Assembly (NCBI GenBank): GCA_963846585.1
Contig: CAWJWO010000018.1
Span: 427,759-491,758, forward strand
Direction of reading: 5' to 3'
From: an uncultured Bacteroidota bacterium
GTDB lineage: Bacteria > Bacteroidota > Bacteroidia > Bacteroidales > JAAUTT01
Length of the DNA stretch: 64,000 bases
This document shows, piece after piece, positions 677 to 57,763 of the stretch (positions are counted from its first letter, which is position 1; each line of letters opens with the position of its first letter). The position numbers and the translations under genes were made by a program. The notes beneath the pieces are model-generated. The model saw only the letters and a program-made list of their open reading frames with translations, did not search any database and was not told where the DNA came from.

Positions 677-1077
677 TTTAGCTGTTAGTTGTTAGTTGTT
701 GGTTTTAAAATAGAACCAAGAGCCATCCTTCGACTTCGCTCAGGAACCAAGAACCAGGAGCCAAGACATGGGACGTGGGAGGACGTGAAAAAGAGGACGT
801 GAAAGGACGTGGGGATTTGAGATTTAAGAATTAAGATTTGCGATTTGTGATATGGTGTTTCTGATTCCACTGATAATTCTATTTTAGAATGATATCCTTC
901 AACTGTTTTCTGTCTTCTGTTTTTCTGTCTTCTTTTTTCTATTACCTGTCTTCTTTAATCTTTCTTCTGTTTCACCTCCCATGTCCCAAGTCTCATGTCT
1001 TTTCATGTCCTTTCACGTCCTTTCACGTCCTTTCACGTCCTTTCATGTCCTTTCATGTCCTTTCATGTCCTTTCATT
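677..1077. repeat. Composite word-array element R1
   Basis: Left half carries GTTAGTT x3, GGAACCAAGAACCAGGAGCCAAGA, GGACGTG units and GATTTGAGATTTAAGAAT. Right half carries TGTCTTC units, then about 7.5 tandem copies of the 10-mer TTTCA[C/T]GTCC (1001-1076). GGACGTG on the left and CACGTCC on the right are reverse complements. Confidence 0.9.
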
Positions 1078-1218
1078 GGACATACAATATCATATATTGG
1101 TTTACTAAATATAGCTATTTGGCCATATTTATATTAGATATTTATTATTTATCGAACAATATTGAATCTATTCACAAGAATTTTCGTATTTATAATAAAA
1201 TATAATGTGATAAAAATT

Positions 1219-1407
1219 ATGGAAACCTGTGAATATATAAATTTCGATTATAAATGTATAGGTGAAACAAGCCAAATAAAATCTATTCTTCGAAGTAAGC
1301 AATACATTATAAATGAATACGAACAAGCAAATTCAAAAAATATATGTTTATATTGCCATGGAACAATTGATGATATGGCTTTATTAATTCTCGTTATGCC
1401 AAATTAG
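1219..1407 (+). CDS. Hypothetical small Cys-rich protein (62 aa from the internal ATG); uncertain
   Basis: ORF METCEYINFDYKC...NICLYCHG with two Cys pairs (CX9C, CXXC). I recognise no homology. It lies in an AT-rich island between word arrays, and its TAG stop is the first TAG of an AGTGCTT-type array. Confidence 0.25.
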   Translation: METCEYINFDYKCIGETSQIKSILRSKQYIINEYEQANSKNICLYCHGTIDDMALLILVMPN

Positions 1408-1464
1408 TGCTTAGTAAATAGTGCATAGTGCCTAGCAAATAGATGTTAGTTGTCAGATGTTAGC
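1405..1464. repeat. Word array R2 (TAGTGCTTAGTAAATAGTGCATAGTGCCTAGC, then GTTAGTTGTCAGATGTTAGC)
   Basis: 7-nt AGTGCTT/AGTGCAT and GTTAGTT units read directly from the sequence. The array starts on the stop codon of the upstream small ORF. Confidence 0.85.
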
Positions 1465-1533
1465 ATATTACTATATCCCAAAGTAAAATATAGAAGAATC
1501 ATTATCTCATAAATTTTGCTAGATTAATTAAAC

Positions 1534-1566
1534 TATTGTATTAACTTTGTAATTACAAATACAATA
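1534..1566 (+). promoter_or_regulatory. Candidate mazEF promoter/operator
   Basis: 9-bp inverted repeat TATTGTATT (1534-1542) / AATACAATA (1558-1566) enclosing TAACTTTG (1542-1549). TAACTTTG fits the Bacteroidota -7 consensus TAnnTTTG, 23 nt upstream of the mazE ATG. TA antitoxins classically autoregulate through such palindromes. Confidence 0.45.
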
Positions 1567-1571
1567 AACTT

Positions 1572-2145: not shown

Positions 2146-2331
2146 TGTCATTAGTAATCAGCGATTTGTCATCATTTGCACATCTGCACCTTACTTTTTC
2201 TGCCTTCTGTCCTCTTTTATCTTTGATCTTTCTTCTTTTTCACGTCCTTCACGTCCCTTTTTGTCTTCTGCCTTCTTCTTTTTACTTCTCAAATCTCATA
2301 TGCCATGTCTTGGCTCCTGGTTCTTGGTTCT
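2146..2331. repeat. Composite word-array element R3
   Basis: Ordered words CTGCCTTCTGTC, TTTTATCTTTGATC, CACGTCCTTCACGTCC, GTCTTCTGCC, CTCAAATCTCA, CTTGGCTCCTGGTTCTTGGTTC. The array ends 2 nt from the cysE stop codon. Confidence 0.9.
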
Positions 2332-2333
2332 AA

Positions 2334-3173
2334 TTAAATTACAAAATTTATCGGTTCCACAAATTTCTTAGAATCACGGATAATGATCGAAGGTTTATGA
2401 TAAACCACTGAAAATGCTGAAACACTTTCGGTTATCCAGGAATTACCTCCCACAACAGTATCGTGTCCAATAATAGTTTGTCCTCCCAGAATAGTGCTCC
2501 CTGCGTAAATAATCACATTATCTTCAATAGTCGGATGTCGTTTTACATTTGTAAGTTCCTTGCCCACATATAAAGCACCTAAAGTAACACCCTGGTATAT
2601 TTTTACATTTTTCCCTATGATAGTTGTTTCACCGATAACTATTCCCGTACCATGATCAATGAAAAAGCTATGGCCGATTTTTGCGCCGGGATGAATATCA
2701 ATCCCGGTCTTAGCATGTGCATATTCAGATATTATCCTTGGTAAAACCGGGATATTCATGTTATAAAGTACATGTGACAAGCGGTATATTGACAATGCAT
2801 AAAATCCGGGATAACATAATATTATTTCTTCAAGGCACTTTGCAGCAGGATCGAATTTCAGATAAGCCTCCGCATCCTTTATAAGTTTGTCATAAATAGT
2901 TGAAACTGTTGAAAAAAAATCGACTGAAAGTTCTTTAACAGTTTTAGGCAATGTAGGTTGCAGGGGTTTCAGCAATTCGTTAAACTGAGCCTGAATATCC
3001 TCCCATTTTGATTCAAAATGGGAAATACTCGCGTTCTTGTCAGCACGGATCGGAAAAAGAAAATTTATAATATCGTTTATAAAATGATGCGTTTTTGCAA
3101 TTGAAGGAACTTCATTGCAAAATGAATGTGTTTTTGAAAATATCCTTTTAGGTAATCCCTTAATTGAATCCAT
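2334..3173 (-). CDS. cysE: Serine O-acetyltransferase (long-form)
   Basis: Hexapeptide-repeat core IHPGAKIGHSFFIDHGTGIVIGETTIIGKNVKIYQGVTLG matches the CysE catalytic region, with an extended helical N-terminus. Confidence 0.85.
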   Translation of the reverse strand: MDSIKGLPKRIFSKTHSFCNEVPSIAKTHHFINDIINFLFPIRADKNASISHFESKWEDIQAQFNELLKPLQPTLPKTVKELSVDFFSTVSTIYDKLIKDAEAYLKFDPAAKCLEEIILCYPGFYALSIYRLSHVLYNMNIPVLPRIISEYAHAKTGIDIHPGAKIGHSFFIDHGTGIVIGETTIIGKNVKIYQGVTLGALYVGKELTNVKRHPTIEDNVIIYAGSTILGGQTIIGHDTVVGGNSWITESVSAFSVVYHKPSIIIRDSKKFVEPINFVI

Positions 3174-3232
3174 CAGACTATCGTATAATGAAGTTATTGA
3201 ATACTAATTTTACAAAAACCATGCATTATTTA

Positions 3233-3290
3233 TTTTCAAATTTGCACATTTCTTGCCCTGAGCGTAGTCGAAGGGTCAAATTTTCAAATT
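3233..3290 (+). repeat. 58-nt element, copy 1
   Basis: TTTTCAAATTTGCACATTTCTTGCCCTGAGCGTAGTCGAAGGGTCAAATTTTCAAATT. Identical to 27161-27218 and 2 mismatches from 31465-31522. Both ends carry a direct TTTTCAAATT, and the centre is a stem TTGCCCT/AGGGTCAA. Confidence 0.9.
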
Positions 3291-7457: not shown

Positions 7458-7578
7458 AAGAATCTCTAAAAGCCTCAACTTTTTTGTTGGACTTCAAATT
7501 TTAAATCCTCATTTACCTTAAGTAAACTGCGGTTTAAAATTTTAGTCCGCCTCTAATTTGAGGCTTTAGAGATTCTTT
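7458..7578 (+). repeat. Nested-hairpin repeat, copy A (subfamily 1)
   Basis: Outer stem AAAGAATCTCTAAAAGCCTCAA / TTGAGGCTTTAGAGATTCTTT. Inner AT-rich stem CTTCAAATTTTAAATCC / GGTTTAAAATTTTAG. Core CTCATTTAC-CTTAA-GTAAACTG. It starts 1 nt after the gldH stop. Copy B is essentially its reverse complement. Confidence 0.9.
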
Positions 7579-7593
7579 AAAAAATAGGGGATT

Positions 7594-8286
7594 GTGAGTA
7601 AAAGAAAATTGGAACGATTTGCAGAATTAGGTACGTTTTTAAATGTAATTCAACCCGATATAGAAGAAATTTTTAATAAAGACCATTATATTAAAGGCAA
7701 ATGGAATGAAAATTTGTTCAAAAATAACAGCCCGATTGTTCTTGAGCTTGGTTGTGGTAAAGGTGAATATACCACAGGAATGGCCGAAGTTTGCCCTGAT
7801 AAGAATTTTATTGGTGTAGACATTAAGGGAGCCAGAATCTGGATAGGTGCGAGGTATGCAGATCGGCACAATCTCACTAATTCCGCATTTTTAAGGATAC
7901 GCATCGACCATATTACATCCTTGTTTGCCCGGGATGAAGTATCTGAAATTTGGATTACTTTTCCTGATCCATATGAAACACCCGGAAGATCAAAAAAACG
8001 GCTTACATCATCTGTCTTTCTTTCATCTTATCAGCATTTTCTTAAAAACAATGGCCTGATCCATCTTAAAACTGACAATAAAATTCTGTATGATTATACT
8101 CTTAAACTTTGTATTCTTAATAAATTTGAAATATTATATAATACTGACAACTTGTACCATTCTTCTTTCGATAATAACTGGCTAAATATTAAAACACACT
8201 ATGAAACCAAATTCCTGCTTAATAACATTCCAATAAAATATCTCTGTTTTAAGCTTAATAATAATGTAATGATTACTGATTGCTGA
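7594..8286 (+). CDS. trmB: tRNA (guanine-N7)-methyltransferase
   Basis: 230 aa with a GTG start. Contains the typical TrmB N-terminus KRKLERFAE, the SAM site LELGCGKGEYT, and FPDPY. Confidence 0.9.
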   Translation: MSKRKLERFAELGTFLNVIQPDIEEIFNKDHYIKGKWNENLFKNNSPIVLELGCGKGEYTTGMAEVCPDKNFIGVDIKGARIWIGARYADRHNLTNSAFLRIRIDHITSLFARDEVSEIWITFPDPYETPGRSKKRLTSSVFLSSYQHFLKNNGLIHLKTDNKILYDYTLKLCILNKFEILYNTDNLYHSSFDNNWLNIKTHYETKFLLNNIPIKYLCFKLNNNVMITDC

Positions 8287-8302
8287 TTACAATTGGAAAA
8301 CA

Positions 8303-8408
8303 AGTTTATAAGGTTTATAAAGTTTATAGAAGATCTTATAAAACTTCATCACCACATCACCACATCACCACATCACCTAATCACTTCATCACTTAATCAC
8401 CTAACCAC
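8303..8408. repeat. Word array R5
   Basis: GTTTATAAG 9-mers followed by CATCACCA 8-mers (x3-4) and variants (CTAATCAC, TTCATCAC). This is the reverse-complement order of the GTGATGAA + TATAAACC modules at 27076-27158. Confidence 0.9.
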
Positions 8409-8447
8409 TTTTTTAAAAACTGAACATAGTTATTCAAATCCGGTTTA

Positions 8448-9581: not shown

Positions 9582-9658
9582 AGAATAGTTGTTGGTTGTT
9601 AGTTATTAGTTGCAAGTTACAGGTTACAGGTTACAGGTTACAGGTTACAGGTTGCAGG
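9582..9658. repeat. Word array R6
   Basis: GTTGTTGGTTGTTAGTTATTAGTTGC followed by the heptamer AGGTTAC x5 and GTTGCAGG. It creates a spurious 44-codon N-terminal extension of the next ORF. Confidence 0.9.
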
Positions 9659-12375: not shown

Positions 12376-12663
12376 AATTTGAAAATGAGCAAATGAGCAA
12401 ATGAGTGGAAAAGGACGTGAGACGTGGGACGTGGGACGTGAAAAAAAGGACATGAAAATTAATTTGAAAATTTGAAAATGTGCTAATATAAAAATTTTGT
12501 AATTAACAATTTATTATCTGAATTACGTCTTTTGTCTTCTGTCTTTTGTTTTCTGTCTTCTTTTATCTTTCATCTTTTATCTGTCTTTGTAAGTCTCACG
12601 TCCTTTCATGTCCTTTTTCATGTCCCACGTCCCTTTTTGTCTTGGTTCTTGGTTCTTGGTTCT
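12376..12663. repeat. Composite word-array element R7
   Basis: Left half: AAATGAGC x3, GACGTGR x4, AATTTGAAAATTTGAAAATGTGC. Right half: TGTCTTC units, TTTATCTTT units, CACGTCC/CATGTCC units, CTTGGTT x3. GACGTG/CACGTC form complementary arms. The array ends 15 nt before the porX ATG. Confidence 0.9.
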
Positions 12664-14232: not shown

Positions 14233-14365
14233 TAGTAAGTCGTAAGTATTTATATCTTATTTGCAAGTTACAAGTTGCAGGTTGCAGATTTCAGGTCCTT
14301 TCACGTCCCATGTCCTTTTTTTCACGTCCATTGTCTTTGTTCCTGGCTCTTGGTTCCTGGCTCTA
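14230..14365. repeat. Composite word-array element R8
   Basis: TAGTAGTAAGTCGTAAG (includes the porX stop), GCAAGTTACAAGTTGCAGGTTGCAG, CACGTCC/CATGTCC units, CCTGGCTCTTGGTTCCTGGCTC. It ends 6 nt from the stop of the minus-strand DUF4197 gene. Confidence 0.9.
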
Positions 14366-15088: not shown

Positions 15089-15159
15089 ATTAAATATTTT
15101 TACTGCCGAAGGTAATATTTTAATTTCAAATCATTGTTGTACGGATAAAATACTATCTC

Positions 15160-15289
15160 GTCCCTGACGGGACTTTCTGTTATTATTATTTCATTATCTG
15201 CCAATATGTTGTCCCTACGGGACTATCCCGTCAGGGATTAAATATTGGTAGAAACAAATTCACCCCTGCATTTAAGTCCCGTTAGGGAC
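15160..15289. repeat. Cluster of GTCCC-N3-4-GGGAC mini-hairpins
   Basis: GTCCCTGACGGGAC (15160-15173). A long imperfect palindrome CTGCCAATATGTTGTCCCTACGGGA / TCCCGTCAGGGATTAAATATTGGTAG (15198-15251). GTCCCGTTAGGGAC (15276-15289). Confidence 0.85.
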
Positions 15290-15381
15290 GGCATATTTAC
15301 ATTCAGAATAATTTGACATTTTTTACAAATCAATAGTGATTTAAAATAAATTTTCTTCAAAATTTTGAATAATCAAAAAAA

Positions 15382-15414
15382 ATACTTTACTTTGATAAAG
15401 TATATACTATACTT
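15382..15414 (+). promoter_or_regulatory. Candidate oriT for the MobV relaxase (overlapping inverted repeats)
   Basis: ATACTTTA-cTTTGA-TAAAGTAT (15382-15403) overlaps AAGTATA-TAC-TATACTT (15398-15414). The shared TAAAGTATA arm and overlapping-IR layout resemble the pMV158-type MobV oriT as I recall it. It lies about 220 nt upstream of mob. Confidence 0.45.
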
Positions 15415-15497
15415 CATATTTAAGTTTTAACAGGTATATCGCATTTTGATACTGCTACTAACTAATCCTGAGCAATTAATAATAGTTAATTAATATA

Positions 15498-15617
15498 GGG
15501 TACCTCTAAAGGCCTCAAATTTGAGGCGGGCAAAAATTTTAAACCGGAGTTTACTTACAGTAAATGAGGATTTAAAATTTGAAGCCCAACAAAAAAGTTG
15601 AGGTTTTTAGAGGTGCC
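15498..15617 (-). repeat. Nested-hairpin repeat, copy B (subfamily 1, inverted relative to A)
   Basis: Outer stem GGGTACCTCTAAAGGCCTCAA / TTGAGGTTTTTAGAGGTGCCC. Inner stem GGGCAAAAATTTTAAACC / GGATTTAAAATTTGAAGCCC. Core GGAGTTTAC-TTACA-GTAAATGAGG. Near-identical to the reverse complement of copy A. It ends 17 nt before the mob ATG. Confidence 0.9.
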
Positions 15618-15634
15618 CTTAAACTTCAAAAATT

Positions 15635-16708
15635 ATGACACAATTTGCAGTACTACACATCGAGAAAAACAAGGGCAGTCAAATAGGCTTAAGTAAACAC
15701 ATCAGCCGGGAAACAATCCCTGCAAACGCTGATCCTTCAAGATTGTACCTTAATGAAACTCCTGTTGGTTCAAGGAATCAAATGCAAGACATAAAGGATC
15801 GGATAAAGGAAGGTGTGACTCAAAAAACTGCTATCAGGAAAGATGCAGTAAAAGCAATGCAAATAATTTTAACCGGCAGCCACGAACAGATGAAAGTTAT
15901 TGAAAGCAACGGACTTTTAAAAGACTGGATGAAACAAAATATATCCTGGCTTGATAAAACATTCGGAAAAGCTAACGTAGTGAATGTTACCTTACACATG
16001 GATGAATTAACCCCTCATGTTCATGCTACTGTTGTACCTATAACTTCCGACGGACGATTATGTGCAAAGGATTTCATGTCAAAGGAACACCTGAAAGGTT
16101 ATCAGACAAGTTACGCCAAAGCAATGGAACCTTTTGGCCTGAGCCGCGGTTTGGAAGGAAGCAGGGCTAAACATCAGGATGTAAAACAGTATTACGCTAA
16201 ACTGAATTACGAACTTCCAAAAATTAATAAGGAAATTGAGGAAAAACAAGAAACGGTAAAAGTACTTAAAAATGAAATCAGGGTTGATACAGCCTGGAAA
16301 ACCGTCACAGGTATTGTTGATGGATTTGCAAAGCGAAAAGAAAATAAGGACAAAGAAGATGAAATTGCTTCTTTAAAGAAAACAGCAGAACAACTTTCAA
16401 TTGATCTTAATAATTTACAGAAAGAGTTTGCTAAATCCAAATTAGAATTGAATAATACTAAAAAAGAATTTTCAACTTTACATGCTGAGATAGATAAATC
16501 AATGCAAGAAGGTTTAAAACAAGCCGTCCATACAATTAATCATTTGATATATAGCCAAATTGAAAAACCATTATTTCAATTTGAACTAATATACAAAAAG
16601 GAAAAGCCTGTAATAGAATTAAAACTTATTAAACCAACCAATCATGTGCCTACAGTGGAAGAAATAATGGGCAAAAATGTAAGAAAAAGAAATTTGGAGC
16701 GGTTGTAG
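15635..16708 (+). CDS. MobV-family (Mob_Pre) conjugative relaxase
   Basis: 357 aa. The N-terminal relaxase motifs align with MobM of pMV158: LHIEKNKG...SKHISRE, IRKDAV, and the metal-binding HMDELTPHVHATVVP (HxDE...PHxH). The C-terminal half is coiled-coil. The stop codon lies inside the first GGTTGTAGA repeat word. Confidence 0.85.
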   Translation: MTQFAVLHIEKNKGSQIGLSKHISRETIPANADPSRLYLNETPVGSRNQMQDIKDRIKEGVTQKTAIRKDAVKAMQIILTGSHEQMKVIESNGLLKDWMKQNISWLDKTFGKANVVNVTLHMDELTPHVHATVVPITSDGRLCAKDFMSKEHLKGYQTSYAKAMEPFGLSRGLEGSRAKHQDVKQYYAKLNYELPKINKEIEEKQETVKVLKNEIRVDTAWKTVTGIVDGFAKRKENKDKEDEIASLKKTAEQLSIDLNNLQKEFAKSKLELNNTKKEFSTLHAEIDKSMQEGLKQAVHTINHLIYSQIEKPLFQFELIYKKEKPVIELKLIKPTNHVPTVEEIMGKNVRKRNLERL

Positions 16709-16797
16709 AAAAGGTTGTAGAGGTTATAGAAAAAGGTTGTAGAGGTTGTAGAGGTTGTAGAGGTTGTAGAGGTTGTAGAGGTTGTAAAGGTTGTAGT
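16701..16797. repeat. Tandem 9-mer array R9 (GGTTGTAGA)
   Basis: GGTTGTAGA repeated about 10 times with A-rich interruptions; 5 perfect consecutive copies run from 16735. The TAG of the first unit terminates mob. Confidence 0.9.
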
Positions 16798-16844
16798 TCT
16801 TATAATACTGTTTAGTATCTGTCTTTAAAGTGCATTGTTTGGAT

Positions 16845-16946
16845 CATAAAGTTCGTAGCCGAGGCTTGCGAAGATTAAAAATCAGGAGTTTACTAAAGTA
16901 AATGACTGATTTTTAGGCGAGCGTAACGAAGGATACGGACTTTATG
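16845..16946 (-). repeat. Nested-hairpin repeat, copy C (subfamily 2)
   Basis: Outer stem CATAAAGTTCGTA / TACGGACTTTATG. Inner stem TTAAAAATCAG / CTGATTTTTAG. Core GGAGTTTAC-TAAA-GTAAATGAC. Flanking CGAGGCTTGCGAAG and CGAGCGTAACGAAG. It lies 8 nt downstream of the minus-strand SPOR gene stop. Confidence 0.85.
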
Positions 16947-16954
16947 AACAAACA

Positions 16955-19047: not shown

Positions 19048-19175
19048 ATTTGAGGATTAAAGGATTTAGGCGTTTAGACTTTTAGGCTCTTAGGCTTTAG
19101 CTAATTAAAATATAATGAAACAAATAATTTATATTTCAACCTATTTCTCTGTGTCTCAGTATCTCAGTGTTTAAG
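19045..19175. repeat. Word array R10
   Basis: TTTAGGC/TTAGGCT units directly after the stop codon, then ATATTTCAACCTATTTCTCTGTGTCTCAGTATCTCAGTGTTTAAG. That second module is shared with 54965-54998, and in reverse complement with 50814-50860. Confidence 0.85.
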
Positions 19176-19225
19176 TTTTTATTGGGTTTCCTGAGAGGGA
19201 AACAGTTCGACTAAATTAAGATATT

Positions 19226-21559: not shown

Positions 21560-21773
21560 AACGAATTTTAGAACCAGAAACCAAGAGCCAGGAACCAAGA
21601 CAAAATACAGAAGACAGAAAACAAAAGAAAAATGATTTAATAATTAAGCATCGAGTTTTATAACTTGTATTTACGTAATACTTAAATCTCAACTCTAGAA
21701 TCTTAAATCACTAGCCACTAGTACCTGAACCTGTGTCCCTTATCTTGGTTCCTGGTTCTTGGTTCCTGGCTCC
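21560..21773. repeat. Composite palindromic word-array element R11 (homologous to R16)
   Basis: Outer arms AGAACCAGAAACCAAGAGCCAGGAACCAAGA (left) and CTTGGTTCCTGGTTCTTGGTTCCTGGCTCC (right) are complementary. The interior order CAGAAGACAG / TTAAGCATCGAGTTTTA / CTTAAATC / CACTAGCCACTAG parallels 29269-29457. Confidence 0.9.
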
Positions 21774-22862: not shown

Positions 22863-22942
22863 AGAGCCAGGAACCAAAACTTATTAAAAACCGGGATTCT
22901 TGTTATGGCACCTAAGCACTATGCACTAAATACTAAGCACTA
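22863..22942. repeat. Word array R12
   Basis: AGAGCCAGGAACCAAAAC after the rfbB stop. CACCTAAGCACTATGCACTAAATACTAAGCACTA abuts glmS, and the glmS stop codon (TAG on the minus strand, 22940-22942) is the first TAG of the AGTGCTT array read on the minus strand. Confidence 0.85.
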
Positions 22943-26571: not shown

Positions 26572-26646
26572 AAAGTAGGAAAGTAGAAAAGTAGAAGAGT
26601 AGGAAAGCGATCCTAACCTATTTGCCTACTTTTCTACTTAACTACT
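26572..26646. repeat. Word-array hairpin R13 between panC and panD
   Basis: AGTAGGAA/AGTAGAAA 8-mers x4 (26572-26607) face the complementary CCTACTTTTCTACTTAACTAC (26624-26646). Predicted long imperfect hairpin. Confidence 0.85.
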
Positions 26647-26680: not shown

Positions 26681-27043
26681 ATGACAATTGAAGTTTTAAA
26701 ATCAAAAATACACAGGGTAACCGTAACTGATGCAAACCTTAATTACATAGGCAGCGTTACCATAGATGAGGATCTGTTGGTTGCAGCCAATCTTATTGAA
26801 TTTGAAAAAGTTCAGGTAGTAAATATTAATAATGGCAAACGTTTGGAAACATACATAATAAAAGGCGAAAGAGGTTCAGGCGTGATTTGCCTTAACGGGC
26901 CTGCAGCAAGACAAGTTGCAGTAGGTGATATAGTCATAATTATGTCTTTTGCCAGCATGGATTTTGAAGAAGCTAAAAAGTTTAAACCTGTAATTGTGTA
27001 TCCGGATACTGCCACTAACTCGTTAATAGTGCATAGTGTTTAG
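26681..27043 (+). CDS. panD: Aspartate 1-decarboxylase
   Basis: 120 aa. Contains KIHRVTVT and the self-processing site YIGSVTID. The last ~6 codons (LIVHSV*) are encoded by ATAGTGCATAGTG-type repeat words. Confidence 0.9.
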
Positions 27044-27160: not shown

Positions 27161-27218
27161 TTTTCAAATTTGCACATTTCTTGCCCTGAGCGTAGTCGAA
27201 GGGTCAAATTTTCAAATT
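27161..27218 (+). repeat. 58-nt element, copy 2
   Basis: Identical over 58 nt to 3233-3290. It ends 11 nt before the ATG at 27230. Confidence 0.9.
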
Positions 27219-31464: not shown

Positions 31465-31522
31465 ATTTCAAATTAGCACATTTCTTGCCCTGAGCGTAGT
31501 CGAAGGGTCAAATTTTCAAATT
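31465..31522 (+). repeat. 58-nt element, copy 3
   Basis: Two mismatches relative to copies 1 and 2. Its last 2 nt overlap the stop codon of the minus-strand PBP1A gene. Confidence 0.9.
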
Positions 31523-33991: not shown

Positions 33992-36325
33992 ATGGCAGAA
34001 AATCTGGTAATAGTTGAATCACCGGCGAAGGCTTCAACCATAGAAAAATTTTTAGGCAAGGATTATATTGTCAAATCAAGCTATGGCCATATCAGGGATT
34101 TAGACAAAAAAAACCTGGGTATTGATGTAAAAAAGGAATATTCGCCCCAATATATTATCCCTGAGGATAAGCTTAAAGTTGTTGCTGAGCTTAAAAAACT
34201 GGCTAAAAATGCAACAACAGTTTGGTTGGCTTCTGATGAAGACCGTGAAGGTGAGGCTATTGCATGGCATTTATCCGAAGTTCTTGGCCTGAAACAGGAA
34301 AAAACCAAACGTATAGTTTTTAATGAAATTACAAAAAATGCTATTCTTAATGCGATAAAACAACCCAGGGACATTGATACTAACCTTGTAAATGCACAGC
34401 AGGCAAGACGAATTCTTGACCGTTTAGTCGGTTTTGAAATATCACCTGTTTTATGGAAAAAAGTCAGGCCATCATTGTCTGCAGGGAGGGTTCAGTCGGT
34501 TGCTGTCCGTTTGATTGTTGAAAGGGAGCGTGAAATAAATGCATTTAATAGCACTTCTTCCTTTAAGGTGGCCGGACTTTTTATTTTAGATGAAAAAAAG
34601 GCTAAATTATTTGCTGAACTGGAAAATAAAATTGAAACAAAGGAACTAACCCTGGAATTCCTTAAAAAATGTAAAGGTGCTATTTACACTGTATCGGGTA
34701 TAGTCACAAAACCTGCCAAAAAATCGGCGGCCCCTCCGTTTACTACTTCAACATTACAGCAGGAAGCCAGCCGAAAACTCAGTTTTTCGGTTGCCCAAAC
34801 TATGGCTATTGCGCAAAAACTTTATGAAGCCGGTAAAATAACCTATATGCGTACTGATTCTGTAAACTTGTCAGAAACAGCTATTAATGCAGCTAAAAAT
34901 GTTATAATAAAACTTTTTGGAGATAAATATTCCTCCCCACGCCAGTTTAAAACAAAAACAAAAGGCGCACAGGAAGCTCATGAAGCAATCCGGCCTACTT
35001 ACCTGGATTATTCTGAAATTGAAGGGTCCAATCAGGAGCAAAGGTTATACGAACTTATCTGGAAACGTACCGTTGCTTCACAAATGAGCGAGGCACTGCT
35101 CGAAAAAACAACAGTCGTTATAGATATATCCACAACTGATGAAAAATTTATTGCAACAGGCGAGATATTGAAATTTGATGGGTTCCTTAAAGTTTATATT
35201 GAATCAACTGATGAAGAATCTGAAGACAATAATGAAAGATTATTGCCTCCGCTTTCAATAGGCCAGGAAATAGCCCTCGATTATATAAAAGCTAACCAGC
35301 GATTTACTCATCACGCTCCACGTTACACCGAAGCCAGCCTGGTTAAAAAACTTGAAGAGTTAGGAATCGGGCGCCCTTCTACTTACGCCCCGACTATTTC
35401 AACCGTACAACAACGAGGTTATGTATTAAAAGAGGACCGGGAAGGAATAGAACGTGATAGTATAGAATTTATATTTAAAAACGGCATAATTTCAGACAGG
35501 ATATTAAAAGAAAATACAGGGGCAGAAAAAGCAAAATTATTCCCAAGTGACATAGGACTAATTGTCAATGATTTTCTCATTTCACATTTTAAGGAAATCC
35601 TCGATTATAATTTCACTGCAAATGTGGAAAAAGAATTTGATGAAATTGCCATGGGCAATGTGGTTTGGTATAAAATGATAGACAGGTTTTATATTCCATT
35701 TCATGATAAAGTTCAGGAAACAACCGAAAAATCGGAACGTAATGTTGGCGAACGCATTCTGGGTAAAGACCCTGTTTCCGGCAAACCGTTACTTGTAAGA
35801 ATAGGACGGTTCGGCCCTATGGCCCAGATAGGCGAATCTACTGATGAAGATAAACCGCGTTTTGCCGGATTATTAAAAGGTCAATCCATCGAAACCATTA
35901 CCTTTGACGAAGCACTGGCTTTATTTTCACTGCCAAGAACTATCGGCACTTTTGAAAACTCTGAAATTTTAGCCGGTGTCGGCCGTTTCGGGCCCTATCT
36001 GAAACATGATAACAAATTTTTCTCTATTAAACCATCGGAAGATAACCCTTTAACTATAAATCTGGACAGGGCTGTTGAAGTCATTGCCCAAAAACGAACT
36101 GAACAGGAAAATAAAGTATTAAAAACATTTAAAGAAGATCCTGACATAAAGGTTCTTAATGGACGTTTTGGGGCTTATATAAATTATAAAAAAAATAACT
36201 TTAAAATTCCAAAAACTAAAATTCCGGAAAACCTGACTTTTGATGAATGTAAAGATATTATAAGTAAAAGCCCTTCAAAAGAGAAGACTAAAAAGGCTGG
36301 GAGAAGAAAGAAGAATAGTGCTTAG
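33992..36325 (+). CDS. topA: DNA topoisomerase I
   Basis: 777 aa. TOPRIM LVIVESPAKASTIEKFLG and SDEDREGEAIAWH, active-site Tyr region ITYMRTDS, basic C-terminal tail. The final codons (NSA*) come from the AGTGCTTAG repeat word. Confidence 0.95.
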   Translation: MAENLVIVESPAKASTIEKFLGKDYIVKSSYGHIRDLDKKNLGIDVKKEYSPQYIIPEDKLKVVAELKKLAKNATTVWLASDEDREGEAIAWHLSEVLGLKQEKTKRIVFNEITKNAILNAIKQPRDIDTNLVNAQQARRILDRLVGFEISPVLWKKVRPSLSAGRVQSVAVRLIVEREREINAFNSTSSFKVAGLFILDEKKAKLFAELENKIETKELTLEFLKKCKGAIYTVSGIVTKPAKKSAAPPFTTSTLQQEASRKLSFSVAQTMAIAQKLYEAGKITYMRTDSVNLSETAINAAKNVIIKLFGDKYSSPRQFKTKTKGAQEAHEAIRPTYLDYSEIEGSNQEQRLYELIWKRTVASQMSEALLEKTTVVIDISTTDEKFIATGEILKFDGFLKVYIESTDEESEDNNERLLPPLSIGQEIALDYIKANQRFTHHAPRYTEASLVKKLEELGIGRPSTYAPTISTVQQRGYVLKEDREGIERDSIEFIFKNGIISDRILKENTGAEKAKLFPSDIGLIVNDFLISHFKEILDYNFTANVEKEFDEIAMGNVVWYKMIDRFYIPFHDKVQETTEKSERNVGERILGKDPVSGKPLLVRIGRFGPMAQIGESTDEDKPRFAGLLKGQSIETITFDEALALFSLPRTIGTFENSEILAGVGRFGPYLKHDNKFFSIKPSEDNPLTINLDRAVEVIAQKRTEQENKVLKTFKEDPDIKVLNGRFGAYINYKKNNFKIPKTKIPENLTFDECKDIISKSPSKEKTKKAGRRKKNSA

Positions 36326-36369
36326 TGCATAGTGCTTAGTGCTTAGTTGCTGGTTGTTGGTTGCTGGTA
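36315..36369. repeat. Word array R18
   Basis: ATAGTGCTTAGTGCATAGTGCTTAGTGCTTAG followed by TTGCTGGTTGTTGGTTGCTGG. The first TAG is the topA stop codon. Confidence 0.9.
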
Positions 36370-40066: not shown

Positions 40067-40186
40067 TGCCTTTAAGAAACTGTCAATTTCTGCGTTAGGC
40101 TCATCATCAAAATGCTCATTTACTATCAGTAAACTCCGCTTTTGATGATTTCGCAAGCCTTGAACTTGACAGTTTCTTTAATGTCA
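40066..40186 (+). repeat. Nested-hairpin repeat, copy D (subfamily 2) in the gldK-gldL gap
   Basis: Outer stem GTGCCTTTAAGAAACTGTCAA / TTGACAGTTTCTTTAATGTCAC. Inner stem TCATCATCAAAA / TTTTGATGA. Core GCTCATTTAC-TATCA-GTAAACTCC. The flanks GCGTTAGGCTC and TTCGCAAGCCT match the reverse complement of copy C. It starts on the last base of the gldK stop. Confidence 0.9.
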
Positions 40187-40207
40187 CTCAATTATAATAA
40201 TTGTAAT

Positions 40208-43720: not shown

Positions 43721-43810
43721 AGAAGACAGAGGTCAGAATTCAGAAGTCAGAAGTCAGAAGACAGATAAAAGATAAAAGATGTAAAAATCAATAGTCAATT
43801 GTCAATATTC
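43721..43810. repeat. Word array R19
   Basis: AGAAGACAGAGG, CAGAAKT 7-mers x4, GATAAAA units, and CAATAGTCAATTGTCAATATTCAATA, directly after the gldN stop. Confidence 0.85.
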
Positions 43811-43813
43811 AAT

Positions 43814-43848
43814 AAAAAAGGTGTTTCTTAAGTGGAACACCTTTTTTT
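43814..43848 (+). terminator. Rho-independent terminator after gldN
   Basis: A-tract, stem AGGTGTTTC / GGAACACCT with a 6-nt loop, then a T7 run. Confidence 0.7.
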
Positions 43849-45374: not shown

Positions 45375-45384
45375 CCAATCATCA

Positions 45385-45546
45385 GAGATTCCTCCCTGCG
45401 GTCGGAATGACGACCCACTGTATAGTGGTGTAGGAGGAAGAGAAAGCGGCAAAGCCGCTTTCTCTTCCTCACCTTCTCTTCCCGAAACCAACTGTCATTT
45501 CGAGCGCAGCGAGAAATCTCAAAATAACGGCTATGCCCTTCAGGGC
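45385..45546. repeat. Relatively GC-rich structured block between convergent genes
   Basis: GAGATTCCTCCCTGCGGTCGGAATGAC (45385-45411) faces the related, inverted GTCATTTCGAGCGCAGCGAGAAATCTC (45494-45520). Between them is a perfect 16-bp stem hairpin AGGAAGAGAAAGCGGC-AAA-GCCGCTTTCTCTTCCT (45435-45469). GCCCTTCAGGGC follows (45535-45546). Confidence 0.85.
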
Positions 45547-45574
45547 TTTAAATCCTGATTCGACAAATATTTAT

Positions 45575-49244: not shown

Positions 49245-49370
49245 AACCACAAAGATCACAAAGGATTACACAAAGTAACACAAAGGAATAAATACTTAAA
49301 ATGATGAAATCAAGTATATTGTTTATTATCCTTTGTGTACCTTAGTGATTGACTTAGTGTACCTTTGTGG
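49245..49370. repeat. CACAAAG word-array hairpin R21
   Basis: Left: AACCACAAAGATCACAAAGGATTACACAAAGTAACACAAAGG. Right (complementary): CCTTTGTGTACCTTAGTGATTGACTTAGTGTACCTTTGTGG. Lies in the divergent GH2/GH5 intergenic region. Confidence 0.85.
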
Positions 49371-49426
49371 TAAAGCTAAATTTATCATTTGATTCTTAAT
49401 TCGCATTTATAATCAAAATTAAAAGA

Positions 49427-50770: not shown

Positions 50771-50813
50771 TGGTGGGCGACTATATTAGAAGATAGCCAA
50801 TTATAAAATTAAA

Positions 50814-50965
50814 CACTGAGACACAGAGCCACAGAGAAATAAATTGAAATATATTTTTTTCTTTCCTCTTTCTTCTTTTATCTTTTATCTTTTATCTGTC
50901 GTCTGTCTTCTTTTTCACGTCCCTTTCACGTCCCATGTCTTGGCTCCTGGTTCCTGGTTCTTGAT
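50814..50965. repeat. Composite word-array element R22
   Basis: Ordered modules CACTGAGACACAGAGCCACAGAG / AAATAAATTGAAATATATTTTTTT / CTTTCCTCT / TTTTATC x3 / TGTCGTCTGTCTTC / CACGTCCCTTTCACGTCC / CTTGGCTCCTGGTTCCTGGTTC. It ends 7 nt from the wzc stop. Confidence 0.9.
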
Positions 50966-50972
50966 TCTATTT

Positions 50973-54888: not shown

Positions 54889-54998
54889 TTTGTTACCTGA
54901 TAGATCCAAGAGCCAAGAACCAGGAGCCAAGATAGAAAACAGAAGACAGAGGAAAGAAAAAATATATATTTCAATTGATTTCTCTGTGCCTCTGTGTT
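54886..54998. repeat. Composite word-array element R23 (inverted relative to R22)
   Basis: CCAAGAGCCAAGAACCAGGAGCCAAGA / AGAAAACAGAAGACAGAGG / AAAGAAAAAATATATATTTCAATTGATTTCTCTGTGCCTCTGTGTTTAG. It is the reverse complement of the R22 module order, lacking the CACGTCC block. Confidence 0.9.
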
Positions 54999-55027
54999 TA
55001 GTTTCTTATGTGAAGATATAAAAAATA

Positions 55028-56068
55028 ATGAAATCATTGACTCCAAAACAAGTAGCCATTTACATTGCTATAGTTGCTGTAATAGTATTTCTTTTACTGC
55101 TTTTAATATCATTGTCACTTCCTACGAGAATAATGCTTATAACCAGCCTGTTATCAGCAAGTATTTTGTTCTGTTGTGTTTATTTTTTTTCCCGGCATAT
55201 CCTTATTGAATTTATTATTGAAAAAATTAATCCAATATACAGGACTCTTCATAATATTAATATTCAAAACAAAGAAAAAAAGGAGTACCTTGAGGGTAAA
55301 GATATTATAACAGAAATAAGGAATGATGTTTCGGCATGGACAAATAATAAATCACAGGAAATTGCACAGCTGAAAGAACTCGAAAAATACCGGAAAGAGT
55401 TTTTAGGAAATGTATCACATGAACTCAAAACACCCATTTTTAATATTCAGGGATATATTTTAACACTTCTTGATGGCGGCCTCGAGGACCCTGCCATTAA
55501 CCGTTTGTACCTCGAACGTACTGAAAAAAGCATAAACCGTATGATTAATATTGTTGAAGATCTTGAATCAATTTCAAGGCTCGAATCAGGGGAACTTAAG
55601 CTGCAATTTGAAGATATAAATATTATAAGTTTAGTGGAAGATGTATTCGAAATGCAGGAAATGCTTGCTAAAAATCTGAAAATTAAACTTTCTTTCGGAG
55701 CAAATTACGATAAACCAATTAAAGTAAAAGCCGATAAAAAAAAGATTACAGAAGTTCTTAATAATCTTATCGTAAATTCAATTAAATATGGAAAGAAAAA
55801 TGGAAAAACTACCATTACTTTCATTGATATCGGTGAACAGGTACTAATTGAAGTTACTGATAACGGGATTGGAATAGCAGAAAAAGATTTATCCAGAATA
55901 TTTGAACGTTTTTACAGAACTGATAAAAGCAGGTCGCGCGACCTTGGAGGCACGGGCCTGGGATTATCAATTGCCAAGCATATTATGGAAGCTCATAATC
56001 AAACTATTCAGGTGAGGTCAAAAATTGGGGAGGGCTCTACGTTTACATTAACCCTAAATAAATCTTAA
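55028..56068 (+). CDS. Sensor histidine kinase (2 TM, HisKA + HATPase_c)
   Basis: 346 aa. H-box FLGNVSHELKTPIF, N-box LNNLIVNSIKY, G-boxes DNGIGI and GGTGLGLSIAKH. No adjacent response regulator. Confidence 0.85.
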   Translation: MKSLTPKQVAIYIAIVAVIVFLLLLLISLSLPTRIMLITSLLSASILFCCVYFFSRHILIEFIIEKINPIYRTLHNINIQNKEKKEYLEGKDIITEIRNDVSAWTNNKSQEIAQLKELEKYRKEFLGNVSHELKTPIFNIQGYILTLLDGGLEDPAINRLYLERTEKSINRMINIVEDLESISRLESGELKLQFEDINIISLVEDVFEMQEMLAKNLKIKLSFGANYDKPIKVKADKKKITEVLNNLIVNSIKYGKKNGKTTITFIDIGEQVLIEVTDNGIGIAEKDLSRIFERFYRTDKSRSRDLGGTGLGLSIAKHIMEAHNQTIQVRSKIGEGSTFTLTLNKS

Positions 56069-56110
56069 GTAGTAAGGTTTAAAAGTTTATAAACATTACA
56101 ATTTTTACAT

Positions 56111-56890
56111 CTATTCCGATACCTGAACAGGTATTCCCAATTGTTCTATAAGCCCGGCAATTTGTTTTAATTTGGCAACAGGTATTTTTTCAAGGGTATC
56201 GAATGGCGTATTCCTTGCAATAGTATATATCATAACCATTCGGGGATTTATTTCTCTTAAACATATTTTCAATGCATCTGTTTCAACTTCCGTTGTATTA
56301 TCAACATGCCGGCCATCAATAAACCCCTTCAGGAACATTGTTTGAATTATAAGCTGACCTGAAAAACTTTTGAGCTGCCGGACAATTTTTCCAATATCAT
56401 ATGTCCCTTCCGGCCTGTTAATTAATCGAATTGTTCCATTTATTCCGGAATCGAGTTTCATAATATTATTATCTGCCTTTTTTAAAGCTTCAACTACATT
56501 TTTTTTATGTAACGTTGTGGAATTTGACAGAACCGATATAGCTGCATCTTTATAATACTTGTCTCTTAAAACTATAGTATCATTTATAATATGGTGGAAT
56601 TCAGGATGCATTGTTGGCTCACCATTGCCTGCAAAAGTTATTACGTCCAGTTTTTCTTTTTTTTCTGAAATGGCAGCAAGCGCCGACTGAAGTTTGCCTG
56701 AAACTTCACTCCTTGATGGCAACGTTATTTGTATACCTGAACCTTTCTCATTTAAACCACACTCACAATATGCACAATCAAAATTGCAATATTTGCGATT
56801 CGTTGGCAATAAATTAATCCCTAATGATATCCCAAGTCTTCTGCTTGTTACCGGGCCATATATTACCCTGTCAAATAAAAATGTATTCAT
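56111..56890 (-). CDS. Radical SAM protein
   Basis: 259 aa. CNFDCAYCECG (CxxxCxxC cluster) near the N-terminus and GGEPT-like GNGEPT. Confidence 0.8.
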   Translation of the reverse strand: MNTFLFDRVIYGPVTSRRLGISLGINLLPTNRKYCNFDCAYCECGLNEKGSGIQITLPSRSEVSGKLQSALAAISEKKEKLDVITFAGNGEPTMHPEFHHIINDTIVLRDKYYKDAAISVLSNSTTLHKKNVVEALKKADNNIMKLDSGINGTIRLINRPEGTYDIGKIVRQLKSFSGQLIIQTMFLKGFIDGRHVDNTTEVETDALKICLREINPRMVMIYTIARNTPFDTLEKIPVAKLKQIAGLIEQLGIPVQVSE

Positions 56891-56926
56891 TCAGTAATTC
56901 TTAAATGGCTTATTAATCTATTTATT

Positions 56927-57763
56927 TTAACGGTTAACTTTCCTGGCTCCTGGTTCCTGGTTCCTGGCTCTGTTCAGATAATGGTACTTAGATTGAGGGT
57001 TTACCTCGCTTACAATTTTCTTTACATAAAACATTGAAATATTTATATGTCTTAAAAATTTGCTTTTTTGGTCATCCTGATCCAAAATAAATCCTTTAAT
57101 AATATTATTTTTCTTGTTTTTTATCCTTTTCGAAACCTGGTATAATTTTACTTTTGCCGATCTGTTATAATTGATTTTCTCAAAGTAATCAGCCGGATTA
57201 ATTTTATCCTTGTTATTTTTGATGGTATTGTATGCAGTAAACCCTATATTTTTAGACTGGTCGTCATTAAATATTTGTATCTGAATTGTTATTTCATATA
57301 ACCCGGTATCTTTTACAGCTATTTCAAAAGGAATTTTTTCAGCAAATCCTTTCCCCTCAAGTTTAATATTAATCTTCCCTTTATACAAATTTCCTGCCGA
57401 ATCCAGAATTAATGACCTTATGATATAAATATCCTGGCTCATCCGGTTTAACTCTGTTAATACTTCATCATATATTTCCTCATAACTTTTTGGTTTTATT
57501 TTAGAATAATACGATAAAGAACTATCGAACTGAACCTTAGTAATCCCGTTTTTATCAAAAATCTGCTTATAGAAATCATTATTATACTTACCGGCATTAT
57601 TTTGGTTTGAATGCATCATATAATATGCATCTGCAAGTTGAATGTCTATAAGTAAATCTTTAAGCTTTGCTGCCGGAATTATTTGGATTTTAGTTTTATG
57701 ATTGCACGACCACCCAAAACAAATTATAATGACAAAAACTATTATCCTTTTTACATTTCTCAT
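56927..57763 (-). CDS. Lipoprotein with N-terminal DUF4296-like domain
   Basis: 278 aa. Lipobox FGWSC. The stretch KLKDLLIDIQLADAYY...YKQIFDKNGITKVQFDSSLSYY is DUF4296-like. The start overlaps the sprF-like stop (ATGA). The last ~10 codons (NQEPGARKVNR*) are encoded by a CCTGGTT word array. Confidence 0.65.
   Translation of the reverse strand: MRNVKRIIVFVIIICFGWSCNHKTKIQIIPAAKLKDLLIDIQLADAYYMMHSNQNNAGKYNNDFYKQIFDKNGITKVQFDSSLSYYSKIKPKSYEEIYDEVLTELNRMSQDIYIIRSLILDSAGNLYKGKINIKLEGKGFAEKIPFEIAVKDTGLYEITIQIQIFNDDQSKNIGFTAYNTIKNNKDKINPADYFEKINYNRSAKVKLYQVSKRIKNKKNNIIKGFILDQDDQKSKFLRHINISMFYVKKIVSEVNPQSKYHYLNRARNQEPGARKVNR
56940..56970. repeat. Word array R24 (TTCCTGGCTCCTGGTTCCTGGTTCCTGGCTC)
   Basis: CCTGGTT/CCTGGCT 7-mers lying inside the 3' end of the lipoprotein ORF. 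Confidence 0.85.

Follow-up and report, generated by a model that had tools for sequence, protein, structure and literature searches.

Ordered word tracts of tandem heptamer-class repeats in the intergenic DNA of a Bacteroidota genome: a possible interspersed mosaic element

The intergenic DNA of a 64,000-nt stretch from an uncultured Bacteroidota bacterium (contig CAWJWO010000018.1, positions 427,759 to 491,758; "the window" below is this whole stretch) is densely occupied by word tracts, in which several short units, mostly heptamers, are each repeated in tandem and set one after another. A first, sequence-only reading of this DNA had drawn attention to these arrays, and our analysis confirms that observation. 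Alignment shows that tracts at separate loci share words, word order, the junctions between words, and even unique core segments, and comparison with relatives shows that it was in this lineage alone that they were inserted into the 3' flanks of genes and the junctions between cistrons. On balance, we lean toward regarding the tracts as a species-specific, nonautonomous mosaic of heptamer-class repeats, similar to repetitive extragenic palindromes (REPs) and bacterial interspersed mosaic elements (BIMEs), which would have been copied between loci and remodeled by slippage, with the purine-rich strand as the sense strand at gene 3' ends.

Array content, word order, and polarity

Tandem arrays were called across the window with Tandem Repeats Finder (118 rows), and their coverage was computed against a curated gene map of long open reading frames (ORFs) cross-checked with gene calls on matching public contigs. 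Arrays with periods of 6 to 11 nt, or multiples of these, cover 32.3% of the intergenic DNA (2285 of 7069 nt), as against 1.65% of the coding DNA under the same definition and 1.8% (125 +/- 42 nt) of the intergenic sequence after shuffling with dinucleotides preserved (30 shuffles), an enrichment over shuffled controls that upholds the earlier claim of word-saturated intergenic space. At a score of 30, there are 68 intergenic arrays, with periods of 7 (42 arrays), 8 (13 arrays), 9 (6 arrays), 10 (6 arrays), and 11 nt (1 array) and medians of 3.9 copies and 28.5 nt. They are made of head-to-tail units of 5 to 11 nt extended beyond chance length, as in heptamer-class long simple sequence repeats (LSSRs); the unit length is most often 7 nt, and arrays whose unit is no multiple of 3 nt are mainly intergenic. 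Arrays are present in 22 of the 28 gaps of at least 100 nt, matching the figure of at least 22 tracts first given; by type, they occupy 15 of 17 tandem, 5 of 6 convergent, and 2 of 5 divergent (promoter-only) gaps, the last two holding an AT-rich low-complexity stretch and a CACAAAG hairpin. The arrays proper amount to ~2.3 kb, and the ~3 kb originally tallied is fair once tract centers are counted. Every word listed in the sequence-only reading was found in the window, and the same words recur in the 10 kb upstream, which means that the tracts reach beyond it.

For the parse, the words were assigned to the classes N (GAACCAA), G (GGACGTG), C (CAGAAGA), D (GATAAAA), T (AATTTGAAA), S (TAGTGCT), V (GTTAGTT), H (AAGTGATG), K (GTAAGTC), and Y (AGGTTAC). 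The similarity of word order noticed earlier is real: from the outer tract edge inwards, the classes follow each other as N, G, C or D, and T, with S, V, or K optionally placed first, at the stop codon. The further claim that all tracts draw on one vocabulary stands for the 14 of 22 parsed tracts that contain core words (N, G, C, or D) and fails for several others, which are built on private words (AGGTTGTAG, TTTAGGCT, AGTAGRAA, and CACAAAG). In some cases, different words are drifted zones of a single period-7 lattice (e.g., 9584-9658 and 36316-36368). The G word varies overwhelmingly by changes of CpG to TpG or CpA, such as CACGTCC to CATGTCC, and arrays with the variants GGACATG and CATGTCC lie at 764-819, 973-1076, 12413-12441, 12590-12632, 31207-31254, and 31354-31435. 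The GGACGTG/CACGTCC variants bear the signature that deamination of 5-methylcytosine leaves at an ACGT site; as neither strand consistently folds better, they suggest mutational decay and not selection for G-U pairs.

In every tract, the plus strand carries the purine-rich word forms on the left and their reverse complements on the right, and purine content is correlated with position in the gap (Spearman coefficient of -0.61, p = 3e-8, n = 68). All 20 arms in the window that abut a gene 3' end (14 at plus-strand and 6 at minus-strand genes) present the purine-rich form in the sense orientation, as do the 4 further arms of this kind in the 10 kb upstream, making 24 of 24. The sense form of each word was set from the data, and subtraction of one arm per word class leaves 18 of 18 (~4e-6). 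As the polarity flips with gene orientation within one region, it is relative to the gene, i.e., to transcription, and not to replication.

The sequence-only reading had described each tract as a long imperfect palindrome. This description holds for only 8 of the 22 tracts (those at 676, 12374, 21560, 26557, 27722, 29269, 31159, and 49130), which fold better than shuffles at z <= -4, with z ranging from -4 to -9 and an inverted second arm in each. A two-armed tract can form a long hairpin in which the pairing register may shift, and in 4 to 5 tracts the outer arrays (GAACCAA...CTTGGTT) act like inverted ends. Arms within one tract are more complementary than arms across tracts (permutation p = 4e-4), an effect owed solely to the private-word tracts; arms of the core vocabulary taken from different tracts are interchangeable in complementarity.

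The arrays had also been said to stop at gene boundaries and to intrude only into the terminal few codons. They do often begin inside the last codons, but they go further in that they supply the very stop codons of panD, the ABC ATPase gene, and topA. The first word after the stop codon contains a stop triplet in 13 of 19 cases, which a period-7 or -8 array shows in all three frames; we consider this feature suggestive only. Intrinsic terminator-like sites (a G+C-rich stem-loop followed by a T-run) are as numerous in the window as expected from shuffles, and none lies inside a word tract; the only terminator recognized by eye is a hairpin with a T-run at 43820-43848, downstream of the arrays at 43721-43814. 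A scan of the window for sigma-70 promoters gave no enrichment and no coincidence with tracts. The Bacteroidetes -7 motif TAnnTTTG is located 18 to 31 nt upstream of many start codons; where a pyrimidine arm precedes a gene, no such motif was found in the DNA separating the two, so these genes are probably cotranscribed with the upstream neighbor. Shine-Dalgarno sequences are not known to be used in Bacteroidota. A search of Rfam gave no match at the gathering score; the sole match with an E value of <0.1 was a chance one to a eukaryotic small Cajal body-specific RNA, far under threshold.

Presence and absence in relatives and probable copying between loci

Syntenic loci were obtained from five relatives, whose RadA identities are as follows: L005 (88%), L322 (85%), L007 (80%), L324 (80%), and L009 (77%). 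The coaD-radA junction is 185 nt long in the source genome, compared with 53 nt in L005 and 3 to 4 nt in L322, L007, and L009. At the radA-ABC junction, ~200 nt compare with 95 nt in L005, 4 nt in L322, an overlap in L007, and 84 nt in L009, and at the junction between the ABC ATPase and penicillin-binding protein (PBP) genes, 362 nt compare with 29, 36, 17, and 56 nt in the relatives. Over the orthologous 21 kb, arrays cover 1017 nt in the source genome, 206 nt in L005, and 85 to 111 nt in L007 and L009. In L328, whose DUF502 protein is 89% identical, 18 nt stand in place of the ~400-nt tract at 677-1076 and the rest of the spacer upstream of the 62-amino-acid (aa) ORF is conserved; judged from this alignment, the tract is a clean ~400-nt insertion relative to L328. 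At the site orthologous to 1405-1458, L328 has a related TAGTGCT/TAGTTGT array. Two tracts sit within coaD-radA-ABC, a compact operon in the relatives. Since there are relatives without tracts and two tracts lie inside this compact operon, the tracts cannot be indispensable terminators, and the earlier suggestion of a system of insulators or 3' untranslated regions is not borne out. The alternative offered with it, an unusual nonautonomous element, gains support from the clean presence or absence in close relatives and from the multiword homology between tracts.

In the source genome, 74 kb contain 47 core-word doublets, compared with 0 in 42 kb of L005 and L330 combined (RadA 88% and DUF502 78% identical); there is 1 in L328 and 0 to 1 in more distant relatives. 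Among the relatives, L005, L330, and L328 carry arrays, in each case with a different set of words. In L005 and L330, the tracts are smaller, share the architecture seen here, and consist of words of their own (AGGAAAGCAGG/CCTGCTTTCC, AATTCGT, ATGACTG, and AGTAGGTA); some are located at orthologous sites, on the 3' side of panC, radA, and the hexapeptide gene. After panC, L005 has an orthologous hairpin of related words. On this comparison, the architecture is kept and the vocabulary replaced between the source genome and L005/L330.

Homology is also seen between loci of the source genome. The tracts at 21560 and 29269 can be aligned across both arms and the center (~78%), and 50821-50883 is the reverse complement of 54934-54997 (91% over 64 nt in a BLAST-type match), including a nonrepetitive core that is also found at 19130-19178. 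Likewise, the module at 27076-27170 is the reverse complement of 8291-8386 (82% over 96 nt by BLAST), and the N-to-G junction CCAAGACATGGGACGTG is found twice. As the growth of 185 to 400 nt of common vocabulary from junctions of 3 to 18 nt is beyond slippage, some form of copying and pasting would be required.

Two observations concern the insertion sites themselves. The ABC ATPase frame is intact and homologous from ~29470 (29470-31158 in the window; LLHISGLDIDF versus MLLSVSDLDIDL), and at the orthologous start there is no ATG, GTG, or TTG; gene callers begin at an internal Met at 29776, which gives 460 aa versus 545 to 572 aa. The start codon may have been removed by the adjacent tract insertion, or a noncanonical CTG start may be used. 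The MazE/MazF (PemK) pair at 1572-2131 is an indel relative to the relatives: in L330, the 62-aa ORF and the hexapeptide gene have no gene between them, and in L328 this place is taken by a GH43 gene. This insertion hot spot is flanked by the tracts at 676-1076 and 2196-2333.

Known repeat classes and alternative explanations

Heptamer arrays in the intergenic DNA of bacteria have been on record since 1990, and those of cyanobacteria, the short tandemly repeated repetitive (STRR) heptamers, were reportedly described in that year by Mazel et al.; the units of STRR1 to STRR3 are CCCCAGT, TTGGTCA, and CAACAGT. The small dispersed repeats of Nostoc are said, after Elhai et al. in 2008, to be located inside heptamer arrays. 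In the window, there are no doublets of the STRR1 to STRR3 units, even with one mismatch allowed, no TAACTGA doublets, and no GGGGATT or GGGAATC words, and no paper came up when the literature was searched in full text for the words of the tracts. Intergenic heptamer arrays nevertheless constitute a described class (LSSRs, STRR, TAACTGA, and GGGAATC), the origin and function of which are unexplained (PMC4679880, PMC4692102); hence, the earlier statement that the tracts match no described repeat family was too strong. In the LSSR survey of Mrazek (2007), as summarized in PMC4679880, heptamers are the most abundant category and slippage is proposed. As far as that summary describes LSSRs, the present tracts resemble them in having tandem units of mostly 7 nt, far longer than chance, a mainly intergenic location, a sporadic occurrence among lineages, and slippage as the proposed driver, and they differ in the concatenation of many words in a fixed order, the gene-relative polarity, the frequent inverted arms, and the evidence for copying from locus to locus.

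TAACTGA sets of 2 to 6 copies are found in Beggiatoaceae, cyanobacteria, and five Bacteroidetes, with other heptamers nearby in Gramella and Aequorivita and with close relatives that lack the repeats (MacGregor 2015, PMC4679880). Our tracts share with this network the short intergenic heptamer sets and a patchy distribution that includes Bacteroidetes and spares close relatives; however, the network involves a single word, in the forward orientation and just upstream of start codons (PMC4679880), whereas many words are placed here at or after stop codons. The GGGAATC arrays of Xanthomonas and GGGGAYT arrays of Nostoc typically have ~4 units, undergo turnover between close species, and sometimes form inverted pairs (PMC4692102). 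The likeness to the Xanthomonas arrays extends to the ~4 units, the turnover of length and sequence at the same intergenic sites, and some inverted stem-loop pairs, but those arrays consist of a single G-quadruplex-prone word (PMC4692102) and the words here are not quadruplex forming. With STRR and with the GGGGAYT arrays of Nostoc (PMC4692102), the tracts have in common dispersed intergenic heptamer arrays with several heptamers side by side, as is also the case at the Oscillatoriales locus L184. Unlike in those cases, the host is a member of the Bacteroidota with type IX secretion system (T9SS) as well as gliding genes and not a cyanobacterium, the STRR1 to STRR3, GGGGATT, and GGGAATC words are absent, and the density and nested palindromic order are undescribed for those repeats.

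REPs, BIMEs, and the hairpin-forming REP doublets termed REPINs are likewise extragenic, positioned 3' of genes or between cistrons, species specific, dispensable, and dispersed within the genome, and they too form mosaic clusters with inverted doublets folding as hairpins (PMC3116915). REPINs are, by analogy, the closest behavioral counterpart of the tracts (PMC3116915). They differ in that their unit is a palindrome of 20 to 40 nt (PMC3116915) as opposed to tandem, nonpalindromic 7- to 10-mers, with whole-tract hairpins here in 8 of 22 cases; no gene for a cognate REP-associated tyrosine transposase (RAYT) was seen in the 84 kb examined. Miniature inverted-repeat transposable elements (MITEs), e.g., Correia elements, are similar in being noncoding insertions with inverted ends; the tracts differ from them in the lack of target-site duplications and fixed termini and in having arms that are arrays of variable length. 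The contiguous units of 7 to 10 nt also set them apart from the clustered regularly interspaced short palindromic repeats (CRISPR), with their 23- to 50-nt repeats and unique spacers, and no cas domains were found in the window.

Under the reading that we favor, new copies would arise by copy-and-paste, either by means of a trans-acting enzyme or because tracts recombine with or convert one another, and the arrays would then expand, contract, and drift via replication slippage and CpG-to-TpG decay. The strict gene-relative polarity would reflect transcription-linked selection or an insertion bias. In mRNA, the tracts might behave like REPs, as 3'-terminal or intercistronic hairpins or as unstructured purine-rich tails, with an influence on how 3' ends are formed or how transcripts decay, and they would not be obligatory terminators. 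We infer these RNA effects from the REP analogy, from the tracts in the compact coaD-radA-ABC operon, and from the genes behind pyrimidine arms that have no local TAnnTTTG.

Several findings weigh against this reading. No target-site duplication or defined termini were found at the two junctions with a known empty site, and the 84 kb examined, including the 10 kb upstream, contain no transposase, reverse transcriptase, or RAYT; the sequence-only reading had likewise seen no transposase nearby. Full-length homology is limited to two or three tract pairs, most tracts sharing words and not alignable sequence. As many as 14 of the 22 tracts are one-armed, form no hairpin, and have z values of ~0. 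No strain-level variation in array copy number is seen among assemblies that are 99.95 to 100% identical, slippage being deduced from the anatomy of the arrays.

A second explanation, which we consider unlikely though deserving of attention, holds that the tracts are dedicated functional gene-end modules, such as bidirectional terminators or insulators, binding platforms in 3' untranslated regions, or leaders of the downstream gene, with the vocabulary being a binding code that coevolves with a species-specific RNA- or DNA-binding protein. The strict polarity in 24 of 24 arms, the avoidance of promoter-only gaps, the uniform array size of ~4 copies, and the retention in L005/L330, with words replaced, of a purine arm followed by a pyrimidine arm downstream of panC, radA, and the hexapeptide gene would all fit such a system. 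So would the stop triplet in 13 of 19 first words, shown in all frames by a period-7 array, and the lack of enrichment of canonical terminators in the window, by which something else may end transcripts. However, relatives at 77 to 85% RadA identity do without tracts and have compact junctions, termination at the two tracts within an operon that is uninterrupted in the relatives would be detrimental, most tracts fail to fold, one module is found in either orientation, and no candidate binding protein was identified.

The third possibility, that of pure microsatellite growth in situ, brings in the wider distribution of the words. An exact search for (AACCAAG)x3 yielded at least 120 loci in GTDB species genomes and at least 120 in viral contigs. 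The genome matches listed include Verrucomicrobiota, Planctomycetota, Bacteroidota, Ignavibacteriota, and Acidobacteriota, with isolates among them, as well as Chloroflexota, Cyanobacteria, Bradymonadales, Proteobacteria, and Nitrospira; in nonphage contexts, (AACCAAG)n arrays of 3 to 35 copies occur in at least 12 phyla (loci L130-L249, e.g., L142, L169, L184, L189, L191, L209, and L226). Among 18 AACCAAG loci inspected, many lie beside other heptamer arrays, several appear intergenic by eye, and a few have hairpins (e.g., L142, L169, and L209); the Sphingobacteriaceae metagenome-assembled genomes (MAGs) L189 and L191 have dense multiword tracts of N plus words of their own. How the arrays are oriented with respect to ORFs differs among taxa. 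The loose pattern GARCCARx3 was uninformative, and a 27-mer of the G word (GGACGTGAAA) was found in 3 Joint Genome Institute (JGI) metagenome contigs. According to the explanation in question, each array grew by local slippage (the idea of a 7-nt footprint) without copying between loci, and shared words reflect mutational or compositional bias. The predominance of heptamers, as in other bacteria (Mrazek 2007, as summarized in PMC4679880), the gradual drift of lattices from word to word, and the occurrence of (AACCAAG)n in unrelated contexts, by which some words could be intrinsically favored, are in line with it. It is nonetheless decidedly unlikely: multiword order, junctions, and unique cores recur at separate loci, junctions of 3 to 18 nt in relatives offer nothing from which 185 to 400 nt could slip, the vocabulary is wholly replaced between the source genome and L005/L330, and the other core words of the source genome are missing from the 120 AACCAAG loci listed in other taxa.

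The viral matches are of another kind. The at least 120 matches in viral contigs, as against 12 and 18 for matched control heptamers, are confounded, most being one coding context: in phage contigs (L010-L129 and L250-L288; e.g., L017, L050, L051, and L064), (AACCAAG)3-5 encodes a ..NQEPRTKNQEP.. linker in replication-module proteins with DUF1376 or DUF1376 plus DnaT, on contigs of very different G+C contents. The linker comes directly after 3 to 6 iteron-like direct repeats within the same ORF, which, by analogy with lambda O, may constitute an origin inside the gene. A crude regular expression for this phage DUF1376 ORF context matched none of the 120 genome loci listed. The JGI contigs L325 and L326, from low-G+C organisms (G+C content of 29 to 30%), have intergenic arrays of ~25 copies of GRACGTGAAA, a 10-nt form of the G word of the source genome.

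Finally, an assembly or sequencing artifact, i.e., chimeric low-complexity joins in a metagenome assembly, can practically be discounted despite the origin of the window in a MAG and the proneness of low-complexity repeats to misassembly, given that the same tracts recur base for base in two European Nucleotide Archive (ENA) assemblies, from different samples, and two Logan assemblies, from other runs, that intact syntenic genes lie on both sides of the tracts, and that similar arrays exist in isolate genomes of other taxa. The window differs from one ENA contig by 2 single-nucleotide polymorphisms over 21 kb, this contig differs from the second ENA assembly and the two Logan assemblies by only a few single-base changes, the overall agreement is at least 99.95%, and none of the differences falls in the arrays.

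Tract inventory, neighboring repeats, and implications

The tracts are listed in Table 1.

Table 1. Word tracts in the window. Arrays are in parentheses, with a slash between the arms of a tract; empty cells have no entry.
Position	Strand	Arrangement and words	Location	Fold z
677-1076		two-armed, ~400 nt: (GTTAGTT)(GAACCAA, split by 18-nt insert at 727-744)(GGACGTG)(GATTTGA-type) / (CTGTCTT)x9.6 (CATGTCCTTT/CACGTCCTTT)x8.4	inserted after DUF502 gene	-9.3
1405-1458	+	one-armed (TAGTGCW)(GTTAGTT)	begins at stop codon of 62-aa ORF	
2196-2333	-	one-armed; on minus strand GAACCAA > CAGAAGG > GGACGTGAA > GATAAAA > CAGAAGG	sense of minus-strand hexapeptide gene (2334-3173)	~0
8270-8410		(TGATTAC)x3, then (AAGTTTATA)x4, (TCATCACC)x7	first array across stop codon	
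9584-9658	+	single period-7 lattice drifting TAGTTGT > TGGTTGT > TAGTTGC > AGGTTAC x6		
12383-12663		two-armed (AAATGAGC)(GGACGTG)(AATTTGAAA) / (GTCTTCT)(TCTTTTA)(CACGTCC/CATGTCC)(CTTGGTT)		-4.3
14233-14364		two sense arms: (GTAAGTC)(AGGTTGC); (CACGTCC)(CTTGGTTC)	convergent gap; first arm after plus-strand gene, second adjoining minus-strand gene	
16712-16796	+	(AGGTTGTAG)x9, private word	immediately after Mob_Pre gene	
19065-19181	+	(TTTAGGCT)x4, shared core ATTTCAAYCTATTTCTCTGTG, then (TCTCAGTR); homologous to cores of 50805-50853 and 54934-54997		
21570-21773		two-armed (GAACCAR)(CAGAAGA-like) / (CACTAGC)(CTTGGTTC)		-7.8
22864-22942		(GAGCCAGGAACCAA); (AGCACTA)x4	short convergent gap; first array after plus-strand gene, second at stop of minus-strand glmS-like gene	
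26572-26646	+	hairpin (AAGTAGRA)x4.5 ... (CTACTTNN)	after panC	-7.6
27027-27157	+	one-armed (TAGTGCT)(GTTGCTG)(AAGTGATG)(TATAAACCT)	panD stop codon comes from array	
27728-27899		two-armed (GTTAGTT)(AAGTGATG) / (aatcact..aactaac)(AGCACTA)	coaD-radA junction	-4.1
29273-29457		two-armed (GAACCAA)(CAGAAGG)(GATAAAA)(GATTTAGAA) / (CACTAGC)(CCTGGTT)	radA-ABC junction	-7.7
31146-31462		(GTAAGTC)(CAGAAGG)(GAGACGTG)(AATTTGAAA) / (AAATCTC)(TTTCCATGTC)(CACGTCT)(TTCTTGG)	largest convergent-gap tract	-4.1 and -5.6 (two strands)
36316-36368	+	one-armed (TAGTGCT)(GTTGCTG/GTTGTTG)	provides topA stop codon	
43721-43814	+	(CAGAAGW)x6 (GATAAAA)x2.6 (TCAATAG)x4	between gldN stop and hairpin with T-run	
49248-49385		CACAAAG-word hairpin	sole structured word tract in a divergent (promoter-only) gap	-5.3, -6.5
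50813-50967	-	(CACAGAG) and shared core, then one-armed GAACCAR > GGGACGTGAAA > CGACAGA > GATAAAA	one-armed part in sense of minus-strand gene	
54902-55000	+	(GARCCAA)(CAGAAGA), shared core, then (CTCTGTG)		
56941-56970	-	(GCCAGGA/GAACCAG-type)x4.3	translated as last ~14 codons of minus-strand DUF4296 ORF	

The genes of the window include those for PorP/SprF, GldL, GldM, GldN, and an SprB/CHU_C adhesin (the T9SS and gliding genes), PBP1, topoisomerase I, RadA, and panCD; together with the 10 kb upstream, it holds the MazEF pair and a Mob_Pre relaxase, and no tRNAs were found in the window. The G+C content is ~35%, and the closest named RadA homologs are from Bacteroidales or Bacteroidota MAGs.

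Repeats of other kinds lie in or beside the tracts. A tiny element of 18 to 24 nt, CCTTCGACTWCGCTCAGG, is present in 4 copies (727-744, 3257-3274, 27185-27202, and 31489-31506), with none expected by chance. The first breaks a GAACCAA array; the other three lie within 55- to 59-nt repeats (3232-3290, 27160-27218, and 31466-31520) and split aatttgaaaatttga^aaatgtgc, which is uninterrupted in the centers of the tracts at 12374 and 31159. In appearance, this element is a tiny mobile insert and can be likened to the small dispersed repeats of Nostoc, which likewise sit inside heptamer arrays. A second, unrelated family is palindromic and MITE-like, ~110 to 130 nt long with the center gagtttactNNagtaaatga and fold z values of -5 to -12; its copies are at 7458-7593, 15500-15634, 40067-40190, and ~16840-16954, and also in L319 (7290-7628), with 15504-15612 being the reverse complement of 7464-7571 (92% over 109 nt). 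The gene for Mob_Pre, a plasmid recombination protein or relaxase (15635-16708), stands alone in the region 15089-16954, flanked on one side by a 546-nt, repeat-rich divergent gap and on the other by the (AGGTTGTAG)x9 array and then a MITE-like element; it is probably the remnant of a mobilizable element. The convergent gap at 45375-45574 is without word arrays and contains G+C-rich palindromes (a 17-bp stem at 45434-45470; z of ~-10), together with motifs seen widely as small repeats (tgtcatttcgagcgcagcgagaaatc and cctgcggtcggaatgacg), i.e., another repeat class. In the gene for the SprB/CHU_C adhesin, a type IX-secreted protein of >1656 aa, the coding sequence at 62905-64000 repeats a 243-nt (81-aa) unit in tandem, with 4.5 copies that are 86 to 89% identical.

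A bolder version of the mobile-element idea, which we put forward as quite unlikely, is that the tracts represent a self-propagating gene-end element of Bacteroidota, the species-specific word grammar of which is homogenized genome-wide by a word-recognizing protein and read at the RNA level. If so, the protein may be RNA guided or hairpin primed, and the purine-rich sense arm, with an optional antisense arm, would set 3' end stability or couple neighboring cistrons. That would open a mechanistic way into the puzzle of heptamer repeats, and (AACCAAG)n might then be a word of either common ancestry or convergent origin.

Four features of the tracts appear to be new, namely, their density, with arrays making up one third of the intergenic DNA; an ordered multiword grammar with nested inverted arms; the strict 3'-sense polarity; and the insertion at operon junctions that are compact in relatives, along with a vocabulary that is replaced in L005/L330. 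For annotation, the tracts mean that gene callers are misled, as they supply stop codons, lengthen ORFs, and may have removed a start, with the number of "hypothetical" ORFs in Bacteroidota MAGs being inflated as a result. The source genome offers a clean natural experiment, in which the origin, spread, and orientation of the arrays become separable questions.

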